Positions 29,713 through 57,804 of a stretch of DNA of 64,000 nt are shown here, piece by piece. This stretch comes from Lentisphaeria bacterium. GTDB taxonomy: Bacteria > Verrucomicrobiota > Lentisphaeria > JABSQK01 > JAWLHB01. The translations under genes were made by a program, and so were the position numbers. Position 1 is the stretch's first letter. Every line of letters starts with the position of its first letter. Where the stretch lies: positions 186,001 through 250,000 of the forward strand of contig JAWLHB010000003.1 of the NCBI GenBank assembly GCA_041690595.1, in the 5' to 3' direction. The notes beneath the pieces are model-generated. The model was not told where the DNA came from, made no database searches, and worked only from the letters and a program-made list of their open reading frames with translations.

Positions 29713-32700
29713 CTACTCGCCGGTGGGCGGGGCAGGCAACTCCACGCCCTGCAGGAATTGCTGCATGCGAGGCTGACGCAGCGCCAGGTCGACCCGTCGC
29801 AGGGCCAGCTCGAGAGTCTGGTTGATAATGTCGTAGTAGTGTTCAGTATGGAAGAAGAGCTTCGCCACGTCTGCATCGACGAGGTGGGTCTGGTTGGGGT
29901 CGACTTCGGGGACGAGCACGATTTTGCCGACACTGAACTGATCGAGTTCCGGCTCGGAGTCGCCGAAGTTCAGCATCATCATCTGCTTGAGAATAATGGC
30001 GCGCCGCAGTCGAATGAGGTCATCGCGGTTCTGGATGAGGATGGTGTAGTGCTGCATACCTTCGCGGGTTGTCTGGTTGAGATTCCAGAGCAGCGTTCTC
30101 CAGGCGTCCCGATCGGGACAGGCCACGACCTCGACCGCGGGAATGGGCTCGCTGATCAGGCTGCCCTGCTGCAGACGCTGCCGGTCGTAGCTGAACGTGA
30201 CGGCCAGAGCGCGGTCCTTGTGCAATGCGAAGAAGCTCATGGGATCCGTGCCGTCGCCATACTTCGCCAGGGTCTTGTCGAGGAACTCGACACCATAGCC
30301 GCCGGCTTCCTTGCGATCGAGGAAAAGCATCTTGTCCCACTCGATCATTTCATCGACACTCAGACGCTTGATGATGTCGTAGGTCATGCGATGCACCAGG
30401 ACATGGGCACCGGGTATCCCACCTCCGGCAAATTCCCGGAATGGCGTTTCATCGGCCAACAGGACATTCTGGCGAACCACATGCTGCACGAGTCCGCGAT
30501 AGCGCTGCAGGCGCTGATTGCCGGAGAGGAAGTCGAGATCGTATACATCTTCGGCGCGCAGCCGATAGAAATCGCGGAAGAGCATCTTGCCAAAACTGTC
30601 GAAGCGATCTTCGTCCTTTGGCAGCGAGCGAGCCACGTAGTGCTCGGTCGGCAGAATATAGGGGGTCAGGACAATGATCACCTCGCGCTTGGAGATCCTG
30701 TCCTTGGAGCTTCGGAAGGCGGGGCCAAGCCACGGCAGGTCGCCGAGAAAGGGTACCTTGTCAATGGCGGTGGACGTTTCGCGACTGACCAGTCCGCCAA
30801 CGATGAAGGGGGTATTGTTGGCAATGCGCGCATAGGTCTGGACCCGGCGGATGGAGATGGTGGGGGCCTGGGCAAGAAGGTTGCCATCGGTGTCGCGGAT
30901 CTGCAGATCCTCGCCGGCCACGGTGGCCGAGACCGTCGTATCCACCAGGAGGCTGACGTTTCTGCCGTCCTCGGACATGCGGGGGCGTATGTTGAGCAGG
31001 ATGCCGGTGGGAATATAGTGGAAGGTGAAGGAGAGCTTGTTGTTGTTGGCGACGGTACCGCTGGTGGCGATGGGCACATCCCGGCCGACGCGGATGGTTG
31101 CCTGCCGGTTGTCGAGGGCGAGTACGCTGGGGCGGGAGAGCACTTCGGCCTTTCCATCGCGGATCAAGGCACGCAAGGTGGCTCCCCAGTCCTTCGTGAA
31201 GTTGTTGCTGAGGGCATAGTCGCCGGTCAACGTACTGGTGGTCAATCCTTGAAGAATGCCACCGGCGGTCATGCGCCAGTTCGCGTTCTGAAAGAACCAT
31301 TCCACCCCCAGCTCCTTCAGGCCATCCTCGCTGATTTCAAGGACCAGCCCTTCCACGAAGATCTGCCTGGCTGGAATGTCGACAATCTGGCGAATGGCAT
31401 TGTGCACCCGGGTCAGTTGATCGGGAAAGGAAGGATGGTAGAAGATCAGCAACTGGCTGGTGGGCGAACCAATCGTGTCCGGCGGCAACTTGCTGGCGAC
31501 GCTGGGAATAAGAGTCATGCCGAGTGTGCTGCGGTCAACCTGCTGCTCGCCGACCAGCCCGACGGAGGCATCGTTGAGTGGAGGCATGCGAACGACCACG
31601 GGGAGCTGGTGGAAATCGACGTCGGAGCTGACGGGATCGCTGTCAGCCAGTGTCATGAAGCCAAGGCGCCCCAGCGCTTTCATGGCGTTGGCACTGTCGA
31701 TGTAGCTGAGATTGAGGACATCGACCTGCAAGTCCTGCCAGGCGATATAGGATTGCTGCGCACCGCTGCGAGCATCGATGACGCCCTGCGCCACCGCCAC
31801 CACGTCGTCGACCTCCTGAGCCGCCGCCAACTGGCCGCCCTGCTCCACGACTCCCTGCAGCCACAGGTTTGGCGCTTGCGTAAGCGAGCGGGTGTAGCCA
31901 ATGCGGAGCCAGCGAGTCACGCCGTCGAGCGAGCGCTTTAGTGTCTTGACACCTTCTATGCGCGGCGGAACCTGCGGTAATTCATCCTCTCCCGGGCGGG
32001 AGAGCCGATATCCTTGTTCCGTCGACAGCTTCAGCAGAAGATTGCCGATAAGCTCCTCGATTTCAACCTTGCGCATACTGGGAAGCTCGAGCAGGGAACC
32101 CGAAATCTGATCATTGTGCGCCAACGCATGCTGAGCGTAGAGGCTCTCGTCATAGCTCTCCAAAGGGGCGGGAGCCGGCACATCGCCGGCGCCAAGGCGA
32201 CGGGTGGATGATCGAGCCGCATCGATTGCCCTGGCCAGCTCATCCAGTTCGGGTAACTGATCGCCGGTTGCGACCCATCCGGCGCTCGCCTTGGGTTCCT
32301 CGAATTCGATGGACTTGGTGGTGCGAGGTTCCATGGAGCGACACCCGGTGGCAAGCGTAGCCGCAACCATCATCACCGCGGTGAGAACGCGCAGTCCGGC
32401 CCATACCGCATCGGAAGAAGTCGTTGACGCAGGGCTTTGGGGCTTGAAGGGAACGGCTTCATCATCGGCCCGTTCATTGCGAGTGGTGGGGGCCTTGCCC
32501 AGATACTCTTCGCTGGAGCCGTCGAACGCCACTTCACCATGTTGAATGTGCAGCACCCGATCTGTCATCCGAATGAGATTGCGCTCGTGAGTGATCATGA
32601 TCAACGTGCTCGACCTCATGTAGTTGGTGATGGCATGGACAACCTCTTCGGACGACTCCCTGTCAAGGGATGCGGTAGCCTCGTCAAGGAGCAGAATTCT

Positions 32701-34215
32701 GGGTCGCTTCAGCAGGGATCTGGCCAGGGTGATGCGTTGCTTTTCGCCGCGGCTGAGTTCGACGCCAGAGGTACCGATCTGGGTCTCATAGCCATTCGGC
32801 AGACGGGCAATGACCTTGCCGGCGCCGCTGATGCGGCAGACTTCCCGGATTTCATCCATGGTGGCATCTGGTTTGGCGTAACGAAGATTCTCATAGATGG
32901 TGGTGTTGAAGAGAAAGACCTCCTGAAAAGCAATCCCCACTTCGTTGCGCAGGTCCATGGTCGGCAGTTCCCTGATCGGTTTTCCATCTATGCGTACCGT
33001 GCCACTGGTGGCTTCCAGGAAACGCGGGATCAGGTACGCCATCGTGCTCTTGCCACCGCCACTGGGCCCCACCACGGCCACATGCTCGCCCGGTTCGATG
33101 GTGAAATGTACATCACGCAATACCGGGTCGCCATCCGGATCATAGGTGAAGCTGACGTTTTCGAAAGCGACACCACCACGAAAGGGGACAGGCATGGCCA
33201 CATCCGCCCGACGCCCCGTGAAGGCCAAGACGGGCTCCACCAGCAGCTCGAGCACCCTATCAACGCTGGCAGTCGTCTTGGAGAGATAGCTGGTGCCGCC
33301 CATCACCTCGACTACTGCCGGATAGAGCATGCCGACATAGCCGAAAAACATGAAGAAGGTGCCGGCGCTCATGCCATTGCGGACTTCGAGTGCGCCAAAG
33401 CCGAGGAGAAAGACAGTTCCCGCGCCAATCAACAGATCCGCGATCACCTTCTGAATGAAGTGCAGTCTCTGCGTTTCAATCTGGCTTTTGCGACTGCGAT
33501 CGATGTTGCGGTCGAAGATCTGTGTTTCGCGTTCTTCGGCCGCAAAGCCCTTGACCACCTCGATGCCGAGAAAGCGCTCGATAAGGTCACCGTAGGCACT
33601 GGCCAGATTCTCCTGGGTCTCCGACTGGCTCCGCCGCATGGAGCGTTTAAAGCGGTAATAGGTGACCAGATGAAGGGGCAGGACGATGGTACTGGCAAGG
33701 GCCAGACGCCAGTTGGTCGTGTAGAGGACCACCAGCAGTATCTGCAACATGAGGACGTTCAGCAGGAAGGTCGGAAACTTGTCTTGGATGAAGGACTGGA
33801 TCTTGAAGGTGTCGTCCATGACCCGGGACGCCACCTTGCCTGGCTGATTAGACTTGTAGTAGTTGAGGCTGAGCTGCTGGAGATGCTCGAACAATTGCCG
33901 CCGCATGCGAAAGCAGAGATCCTCGCTGACTCGCACGGAGACCATGCGGCTCGAGAAGAAGAGCAGGTTGCGGACGAGGTAAATGAAGAAGAGGGCCGGG
34001 AGAATGAGCCAGAGGAGGTTCCAGTTGCCCAGATTGGTCTCGGTGGGGAAGACTTCATCGATCATCAACTTGATGGTGAACGGCAGGGCCATGTTGGTCG
34101 CCGCCAGTACCGCCAGGAGAAGAACGACCAGGGCGAGTCGCCAGGAGTAGGGTCGCATCAGCGCGATGAGACCACCGTTGCTCCCCTTCTCGCTCTTCGG
34201 CTGTTGCTCCTCCAT
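29713..34215 (-). CDS. Fusion protein: ABC exporter TMD+NBD / internal lipoprotein-like signal / secretin (GspD/PilQ family) / unknown C-terminal domain
   Basis: GPSGGGKST, LSRGEKQR, LLLDEATASLD, ITHE; LATG-C625; QIFVEGLVLEI, LSRPSVLALDNRQATIRVG, GGLV, KVPFLGDLPWLGPAFRS, VLTPYI. Confidence 0.85.
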   Translation of the reverse strand: MEEQQPKSEKGSNGGLIALMRPYSWRLALVVLLLAVLAATNMALPFTIKLMIDEVFPTETNLGNWNLLWLILPALFFIYLVRNLLFFSSRMVSVRVSEDLCFRMRRQLFEHLQQLSLNYYKSNQPGKVASRVMDDTFKIQSFIQDKFPTFLLNVLMLQILLVVLYTTNWRLALASTIVLPLHLVTYYRFKRSMRRSQSETQENLASAYGDLIERFLGIEVVKGFAAEERETQIFDRNIDRSRKSQIETQRLHFIQKVIADLLIGAGTVFLLGFGALEVRNGMSAGTFFMFFGYVGMLYPAVVEVMGGTSYLSKTTASVDRVLELLVEPVLAFTGRRADVAMPVPFRGGVAFENVSFTYDPDGDPVLRDVHFTIEPGEHVAVVGPSGGGKSTMAYLIPRFLEATSGTVRIDGKPIRELPTMDLRNEVGIAFQEVFLFNTTIYENLRYAKPDATMDEIREVCRISGAGKVIARLPNGYETQIGTSGVELSRGEKQRITLARSLLKRPRILLLDEATASLDRESSEEVVHAITNYMRSSTLIMITHERNLIRMTDRVLHIQHGEVAFDGSSEEYLGKAPTTRNERADDEAVPFKPQSPASTTSSDAVWAGLRVLTAVMMVAATLATGCRSMEPRTTKSIEFEEPKASAGWVATGDQLPELDELARAIDAARSSTRRLGAGDVPAPAPLESYDESLYAQHALAHNDQISGSLLELPSMRKVEIEELIGNLLLKLSTEQGYRLSRPGEDELPQVPPRIEGVKTLKRSLDGVTRWLRIGYTRSLTQAPNLWLQGVVEQGGQLAAAQEVDDVVAVAQGVIDARSGAQQSYIAWQDLQVDVLNLSYIDSANAMKALGRLGFMTLADSDPVSSDVDFHQLPVVVRMPPLNDASVGLVGEQQVDRSTLGMTLIPSVASKLPPDTIGSPTSQLLIFYHPSFPDQLTRVHNAIRQIVDIPARQIFVEGLVLEISEDGLKELGVEWFFQNANWRMTAGGILQGLTTSTLTGDYALSNNFTKDWGATLRALIRDGKAEVLSRPSVLALDNRQATIRVGRDVPIATSGTVANNNKLSFTFHYIPTGILLNIRPRMSEDGRNVSLLVDTTVSATVAGEDLQIRDTDGNLLAQAPTISIRRVQTYARIANNTPFIVGGLVSRETSTAIDKVPFLGDLPWLGPAFRSSKDRISKREVIIVLTPYILPTEHYVARSLPKDEDRFDSFGKMLFRDFYRLRAEDVYDLDFLSGNQRLQRYRGLVQHVVRQNVLLADETPFREFAGGGIPGAHVLVHRMTYDIIKRLSVDEMIEWDKMLFLDRKEAGGYGVEFLDKTLAKYGDGTDPMSFFALHKDRALAVTFSYDRQRLQQGSLISEPIPAVEVVACPDRDAWRTLLWNLNQTTREGMQHYTILIQNRDDLIRLRRAIILKQMMMLNFGDSEPELDQFSVGKIVLVPEVDPNQTHLVDADVAKLFFHTEHYYDIINQTLELALRRVDLALRQPRMQQFLQGVELPAPPTGE

Positions 34216-34364: not shown

Positions 34365-34443
34365 GACGCGGGGACGCGGGGACGCGGGGACACGGGACGC
34401 GGGGACGCGGGGACGCGGGGACGCGGGGACGCGGGGACGCGGG
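34365..34443 (+). repeat. Tandem 8-bp repeat (GACGCGGG) x10, one 7-bp variant
   Basis: Direct reading: 9 perfect units plus GACACGG at 34389-34395. Confidence 0.95.
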
Positions 34444-34467
34444 GATCACGCAAATCAGGGCCCTCCC

Positions 34468-36175: not shown

Positions 36176-36370
36176 CGAATGAGCGGGGATGGGCATTGGG
36201 GAGCGGCGACGCGAATGAGGCCACTCAGGCGAGTGGCGTGCCCGGGAGGGGGAACTGCGGGGCGAATGAGCGGGGATGGGCATTTGGGGTGCGGCGATGC
36301 GAATGACGCCACTCAGGCGAGTGGCGTTCCCGGGAAGGGGACCCGAGGGCGAATGAAAGGCGAGGGGCAT
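36176..36370 (+). repeat. 87-bp-period direct repeat (2 units plus partial) with REP-like palindrome
   Basis: CGAATGA at 36176, 36263, 36350; each full unit has GCCACTC-AGGC-GAGTGGC. Confidence 0.85.
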
Positions 36371-57259: not shown

Positions 57260-57804
57260 GGGTTGGGGGCGCTCTCCGTCTGCGCTTCCAGTCGCGGCTC
57301 ATGCTCCGGCCGCAGAAAGGAGGAAAGCAGGTAGATGCCGACACCGATACAGATGGCGGAGTCGGCAATATTGAAGGCCGGCCAGTCGTAGGTGATCAGC
57401 CGAAAACTGAGGAAATCGACCACGCCGCCGTAGAAGAGGCGATCAATCAGATTTCCCACAATCCCACCAAGGATCAGGCTTATCGCCACGCAGCGCTCCG
57501 TCCAGTCAGCCGTCATGCGCCCATAGAAGAAGGCCACGATGACGAAGACGACAGCGGAGATCAGGGCGAGCATCTCCGTATGGTCAGCAAAGATGCCCCA
57601 GGCAGCGCCAGGATTCTTCACGTAGACCAGATCGAAGAAGCCGTGTATGACGGAGATGGGCAGCCGATGCTCATGCGCCATCGTCAGATGCTTGGTAGCC
57701 TGGTCGAGGGCGACGATGAGCACGGCGGTAAGCAATGGGAACTGCCACACGCGCCGCCATGCCATCGGTGCTGAGCCGCGCGCGGGTTGTGTAGCAGATT
57801 CCAT
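57256..57804 (-). CDS. lspA: Signal peptidase II
   Basis: LDQATK, NPGAAWG, GNLIDRL, VVDFL, FNIADSAI; start uncertain. Confidence 0.95.
   Translation of the reverse strand: MESATQPARGSAPMAWRRVWQFPLLTAVLIVALDQATKHLTMAHEHRLPISVIHGFFDLVYVKNPGAAWGIFADHTEMLALISAVVFVIVAFFYGRMTADWTERCVAISLILGGIVGNLIDRLFYGGVVDFLSFRLITYDWPAFNIADSAICIGVGIYLLSSFLRPEHEPRLEAQTESAPNP

Follow-up and report, generated by a model that had tools for sequence, protein, structure and literature searches.

Lipoprotein signals are treated as N-terminal elements, and predictors look for them there alone. Internal signal peptides within one ORF are found in viral (bunyavirus) glycoprotein polyproteins, which are cut by host signal peptidase. 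In bacteria, LtaS of Staphylococcus aureus is a polytopic protein cut by the type I signal peptidase (SPase I) SpsB (PMC12260438), and RodZ shows SecA-dependent targeting via an internal segment (PMC9360617). Among secretins, HxcQ of Pseudomonas aeruginosa is a self-piloting liposecretin, as cited in PMC3542185.

We analyzed a 64,000-nucleotide stretch of a Lentisphaeria bacterium contig (the window), whose minus strand carries a 1,500-aa ORF (34215..29713) that joins an ABC half-exporter to a secretin. Like HxcQ, it contains a secretin with a lipoprotein signal that is predicted to pilot itself to the outer membrane without a pilotin. It differs from HxcQ in that the signal follows 600 residues of ABC exporter, the neighborhood yielded no type II secretion genes, and extra helix-grip-like and C-terminal domains are present. 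Like LtaS, it is a polytopic membrane protein for which a cut by signal peptidase, with release of an outside domain, is predicted; however, the cut in LtaS inactivates one enzyme, whereas that of the fusion would yield two unrelated mature proteins, each for its own membrane, mostly by SPase II. The organization of one ORF with an internal signal peptide is shared with the viral polyproteins, from which the present gene differs in being bacterial and chromosomal, in its lipoprotein-type site, and in its products, a transporter and a pore. In the literature searched, which lay outside subscription journals and supplements, no report of an ABC-secretin fusion or of an internal lipobox was found, and two ABC-transporter reviews held nothing relevant on secretin. 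The pairing of a secretin with an ABC exporter, and not with a pilus or needle, suggests a route of export of which that literature gave no account. If the internal signal is used as we propose below, Lgt and LspA can act internally and such lipoproteins are missed by annotation.

Architecture of the fused protein and its relatives

The order of parts in the ORF is ABC half-exporter, polar linker, hydrophobic stretch, LATG-Cys625 and secretin, and fused homologues were found. A query with the secretin half found 378 proteins, and the 120 listed comprised 32 ABC-secretin fusions (query included) and 88 stand-alone secretins, mostly of about 930 aa. A query with the ABC half, restricted to proteins longer than 1,007 aa, found 653, and a Secretin domain was present in all 120 listed. 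The union of the listed rows from both queries, 122 proteins with that of the window, was used as the fusion set. Fusions with a named source were mostly from Planctomycetota and mostly annotated as ABC transporters; no named, cultured carrier occurred among 10 proteins checked, and no plasmid record covered 80% of the secretin. The distribution near the window's genome was patchy, as 10 of 401 genomes of its phylum matched at E<=1e-60, its own genome counted. The closest relative among the listed matches, P0002, is also fused; its ABC and secretin parts are 68% and 56% identical, respectively, to those of the window. Two fused homologues (L048:7795-12781 and L096:7805-12335) have a broken frame, which affects the ABC part in one and the C-terminal domain of the secretin in the other; assembly errors may account for these breaks.

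The exporter half consists of a transmembrane domain (ABC_membrane, Pfam PF00664, aa 28-297, 33325..34134, E 5.9e-40) and a nucleotide-binding domain (NBD) at about aa 349-572 (32500..33171), within which PF00005 (ABC_tran) covers aa 366-515. In the window, Walker A (GPSGGGKS), Walker B (LLDE) and the His switch are intact, and the signature is the non-canonical LSRGE. Across the family, Walker A was present in 121 of 122 fusions, and 117 of the 119 that were parsed had the His switch and the Asp-Glu of Walker B. The signature was LSRGE in 68 fusions, LSHGQ in 40 and another R/H/F variant in 11, with three unparsed; none of the 119 parsed had LSGGQ, and therefore ATP hydrolysis may be slow or depend on a partner. 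Beside the gene, no dedicated partner with which the exporter could form a heterodimer was found. Except for the canonical LSGGQ signature, the ABC half has the TMD-NBD organization of a type IV (MsbA/HlyB-type) half transporter, and its best NCBIfam similarities were to MsbA-related models, all below cut-off. Unlike MsbA/HlyB and type I secretion exporters, it has LSGGQ in no parsed signature, it is not accompanied by an MFP or TolC gene that recurs from clade to clade among the neighbors scanned, and its partner is a secretin. A MacAB-like operon with its own ATPase lies upstream of the fusion in one marine clade (L116).

The polar cytoplasmic linker (aa 573-603, 32407..32499) lacks in-frame ATG, GTG and TTG, and its length is highly variable among homologues, with a distance from His switch to Cys of 50-410 aa (median 60) across fusions. 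An extreme case is the fusion P0038, in which a linker of about 380 residues still has the hydrophobic stretch and lipobox at its end.

The monomer model of aa 625-1500 (pLDDT 77.5) comprises a flexible tether, a helix-grip-like domain, N3, the barrel and a C-terminal domain. The predicted periplasmic helix-grip-like domain (aa 701-822, 31750..32115) gave a middling match to the BamC N-domain and KA1 folds (VIA Z about 8), and the modeled N3-type ring domain (aa 828-948, 31372..31734) matched the N-domains of EscC and XcpQ (Z 6.8-7.6). The beta-barrel domain (aa 949-1190, 30646..31371) was recognized by PF00263 (aa 1016-1188, E 1.1e-38, 132.9 bits against a cut-off of 27.5) and by Foldseek, with PulD, ExeD and GspD at E 6e-17 to 1e-15 (PulD 5.7e-17) and a VIA Z of about 12. 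With its barrel preceded by N3, the protein belongs to the secretin superfamily and shares this fold with the T2SS, T4P and T3SS secretins (GspD/PulD, PilQ, InvG). Unlike these, it scored below the cut-off of the GspD model TIGR02517 (162.5 against 351.35) and is not assigned to type II secretion GspD; moreover, no pilin, ATPase or platform genes were recognized among the neighbors scanned, where the recurring genes belonged to unrelated families. The family-specific C-terminal domain (aa 1205-1500, 29716..30603) was modeled with confidence (pLDDT 91.9) and resembled no solved structure clearly: Z reached at most 5.0, among weak rows of LysM-like and GGDEF-like type, Foldseek returned none at E<=0.001, and the Atlas match was 0.78. 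The weak LysM-like rows (Z 4.5-4.8) fell at both ends of this 296-residue model, a possible peptidoglycan-binding lead.

Signals at the junction

An earlier note on this DNA had described a lipoprotein-type signal buried inside the ABC-secretin ORF, and this description held. Downstream of the NBD and polar linker, AVWAGLRVLTAVMMVAATLATG-C occupies aa 603-625, with an internal signal-peptide-like stretch at aa 604-624 (32344..32406) and the Cys625 codon at 32343-32341; lipidation is predicted at this Cys, which would become residue +1 of the mature secretin. Arg609, just before VLTAVMMVAATL, supplies a positive charge ahead of the h-region, and the net charge of the 10 residues ahead of the h-region is 0 in the window. 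The lipobox, LATG-C625, is of the [GAS]-Cys type and has Ala at position -3, where the consensus is L/V/I; Ala at -3 was also found in 9 of 83 stand-alone relatives. The signal (aa 604-625) is not N-terminal in the translated chain. The note's observation that the linker contains no in-frame ATG or GTG was likewise confirmed, none being present over aa 563-613, and TTG is absent there as well. The nearest in-frame starts upstream, ATG550 and GTG562, are both within the NBD; GTG614, ATG615 and ATG616 lie inside the hydrophobic stretch itself, and in-frame CTG codons occur at aa 572 and 608.

Conservation of the helix and Cys in homologues, on which the note had made its proposal depend, was complete for the helix and partial for the Cys. 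Signals were called by our own hydrophobicity and pattern rules; the automatic call assigned 90 to the lipobox type, 27 to the SPase I-like type and 5 to neither, and re-reading of seven rows by eye (P0133 and P0175 to lipobox; P0184, P0188, P0189, P0190 and P0209 to Cys-less) gave 91 lipobox and 31 Cys-less. A hydrophobic stretch was present at the same place in all 122 listed fusions and ended in a [GAS]-Cys lipobox in 91 of them, the remaining 31 having an SPase I-like site instead. The junction stretch is far from chance. Positive net charge in the 10 residues ahead of the h-region was found in 93% of the 90 lipobox fusions. The Cys is nearly invariant in stand-alone relatives, and 82 of the 88 start with the same lipobox signal by the automatic call; therefore, the mature product also occurs as a protein of its own.

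With site patterns that were chosen after the sequences had been seen, A-x-A-[QDE] followed the stretch in 18 of the 31 Cys-less fusions and the looser [AVS]-x-A-[QDE] in 26, versus none of the 91 lipobox fusions in either case; in the five remaining Cys-less fusions the stretch ended in small-x-Ala. In a first pass, in which 28 of the 31 were parsed, the strict site was present in 17, compared with 3.5 on average and no more than 10 in 2,000 shuffles. Related sequences are not independent, and the 31 Cys-less rows therefore represent about two events: SPase I-type fusions occupied two places in the tree, a basal group (support 94/93) and P0125 within the lipobox clade (100/100). The fusion with its internal signal is a real, conserved feature, and its conserved element appears, from these comparisons, to be a cleavage-type signal that was kept over deep divergence despite changes in the linker.

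The genome encodes lgt, lspA and lnt as well as an SPase I. The LolA Pfam family was not found in the genome and the best LolC/E match was below cut-off; LolA-like genes exist in it. The single lspA match of the genome is located inside the window (57316-57726, minus strand), about 23 kb from the fusion, which is probably coincidence.

Fused and split forms of the gene

To the window we added the best 80 of 282 genome matches, giving 81 loci. The gene was fused in 19 of them, the ABC protein was encoded by a separate ORF directly upstream in 32 (two-gene form), and no such ABC gene was seen in 30, several of which were cut off by contig ends. In the secretin tree (102 rows, short matches and near-duplicates left out), the 32 two-gene loci formed one clade (SH-aLRT 100) among the fusions, and the window was not in that clade. 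For the ABC tree, 85 of 158 rows and then 40 were chosen in the same way. When it was rooted on the genome's other exporters, which are long branches as outgroups, both sub-root branches were or contained fusions and the split clade was nested. An AU test rejected keeping all fusions apart from split forms (p=0.024), the grouping having been named after the earlier secretin tree had been seen. Because the rooted ABC tree nests the split clade among fusions and the AU result agrees, these trees suggest an ancestral fusion that was later split, once, to give the two-gene form. The family carries its own experiment, one gene being available in lipobox and SPase I versions and in fused and split form.

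Readings of the junction and gene neighborhood

The best-supported of the readings, by sequence comparison, is one that the earlier note had raised, namely that the ORF encodes a polyprotein whose chain is cut at Cys625 by the lipoprotein pathway, releasing a lipoprotein secretin; we regard this as fairly probable. Sec would insert the six exporter helices and the NBD would fold in the cytoplasm, after which the seventh hydrophobic stretch (N-in, C-out) would restart translocation of about 875 residues. Cys625 would be lipidated by Lgt, the Gly624/Cys625 bond cut by LspA, and the new N-terminus acylated by Lnt. The lipid-anchored secretin, piloted by its own lipid, would form the outer membrane ring and the exporter would dimerize in the inner membrane; in the Cys-less relatives SPase I would make the cut instead. 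Such a fusion would guarantee co-expression of the two partners of a two-part export route that lacks an adjoining MFP, TolC or pseudopilus gene, and we infer from their co-inheritance that the two products may work together in this manner. The sequences show the architecture and its conservation, both types of signal, and a genome equipped with the processing genes; lipidation, cleavage, localization and transport are predicted steps. The wider proposal is that an ancient polyprotein, split either by SPase II, after lipidation 624 residues into the chain, or by SPase I, provides Planctomycetota and further PVC bacteria with a secretin-gated export route of two parts that has not been described. 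It is plausible, and we advance it tentatively.

The polyprotein reading is favored by the two conserved signal types, the stand-alone forms with the same signal, the fused junctions devoid of start codons (10 of 41), the nested two-gene clade, a hydrophobic stretch that is not lengthened, the short spacing in L175-L179, the presence of lgt, lspA, lnt and SPase I, and the LtaS and HxcQ precedents. Against it, the bulky exporter might block Lgt and LspA, and no report of either enzyme acting after 624 residues was found in the literature searched. An exporter has 2 subunits and a secretin ring 12-15, and the equal output of both halves misfits these numbers, which also counts against it, as do the LolA and LolC/E results and the possible starts in the linkers, to which we now turn. 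The main remaining rival, which the earlier note had not raised, is a nested in-frame start, by which the secretin would be made mainly from inside the linker and the long chain would be cut, degraded or minor. We consider this unlikely, although it could supply surplus secretin for the ring and would mean that the signal is kept for the shorter product. An ATG, GTG or TTG was present between the NBD and h-region in 31 of 41 distinct fused DNA junctions; however, the other 10 (the window, L050, L051, L076, L087, L122, L175, L176, L178 and L179) had none, including 5 of 7 Cys-less junctions, and start-codon positions were not conserved between clades. In the window, a start at CTG608, which is of a rare type, would yield a well-shaped 17-residue signal, and P0002 has a Met 15 residues ahead of its Cys. 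The strongest resemblance to an internal start comes from a marine clade of about 45 proteins in which MKHP is kept 20-30 residues before the Cys. Used as a start, MKHP would make a textbook signal peptide, and it looks like an internal start, with ATG in all but one distinct junction and A-rich DNA upstream; yet L122 has TTA at this codon, all 20 members aligned share the His and Pro, and the position showed no Shine-Dalgarno motif. The exporter could be obtained solely as a fused chain anyway, and an internal start is compatible with cleavage of the long form.

The earlier note had also offered an uncleaved trans-envelope tether, in which a seventh membrane helix, perhaps lipidated, ties the secretin ring to the exporters. 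The retention of the fusion over deep divergence would suit it, as would the window model, with about 75 low-confidence residues and two domains between Cys625 and the barrel. However, two kinds of cleavage-type motif are retained, with an SPase I-type site where the Cys is lost, and one whole clade has the halves as separate genes. The uncharged run before the Cys (median 17 in fusions versus 19 in stand-alone forms) is not longer in fusions, and greater length might be expected of a permanent anchor. Furthermore, in five fused genomes (L175-L179) that have A-x-[AG] sites and are devoid of the helix-grip-like domain, the site lies about 9-15 residues ahead of N3, which seems too short to tie an outer-membrane ring to the inner membrane. 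This anchored form is thus disfavored and, in our estimate, quite improbable. Less probable by far is the note's other caveat, an assembly error or recent frameshift in which a one-base artifact made the fusion and the true secretin start is the out-of-frame MMKPF. The overlapping peptide does exist: MMKPFPSSPKALRQRLL begins at 32465 in the +1 frame and runs for 30 codons to a stop at 32375 (32373..32465, minus strand). Over 17 codons its codon-usage score is about equal to that of frame 0 (-0.11 versus -0.15), and two-gene relatives frequently have the ABC stop codon next to, or overlapping, the start of the secretin gene. Nevertheless, 122 fused proteins are listed, P0002 is fused with a frame-0 linker whose beginning is similar to that of the window, frame 0 has the better score over the linker as a whole (0.08 versus -0.08), and the two-gene form is a separate clade with the window outside it. 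MMKPF was rejected as the secretin start on these grounds, the small ORF was judged incidental, and the caveat found no support. Four low-share public DNA runs from one study had listed pieces over 32195-32345 and 32567-32717 and none across the linker, with no indel listed there, and RNA runs were absent from the listing; because public reads did not cross it, the reading frame of the fusion rests on homologues.

Gene neighbors gave no substrate clue, and the flanks of fused genes varied by clade. Secretins without an ABC gene were often found beside an MscS-type channel, a TAXI-type binding protein fused to an ion-channel/TrkA domain and an SdiA-regulated-family gene (L097:5987-13541, and similarly L054, L065, L066, L068, L072, L073, L102 and L107); in loci labeled Verrucomicrobiota, the neighbor was an MscS with a cNMP-binding domain (L079:12381-13886). 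In one subclade, the gene immediately upstream of the split ABC-secretin pair encodes a subtilase with a P-domain and dockerin-like tail (L093:4776-7829, with 16 further loci like it), which may be a substrate or may reflect mere synteny. The promoter and terminator scan gave chance level only. In L111-L136, a recurring motif similar to TG-x-TA(C/G)(G/C/T)AT was seen about 7-12 bases before the ATG of the fusion; it resembles an extended -10 element and suggests a nearly leaderless mRNA. In the window itself, a tandem array of GACGCGGG (34365-34445, 10.2 copies) lies about 150 bases upstream of the fusion start codon, and an 88-base tandem repeat (2.2 copies) occupies 36176-36370, a region with no clear gene.
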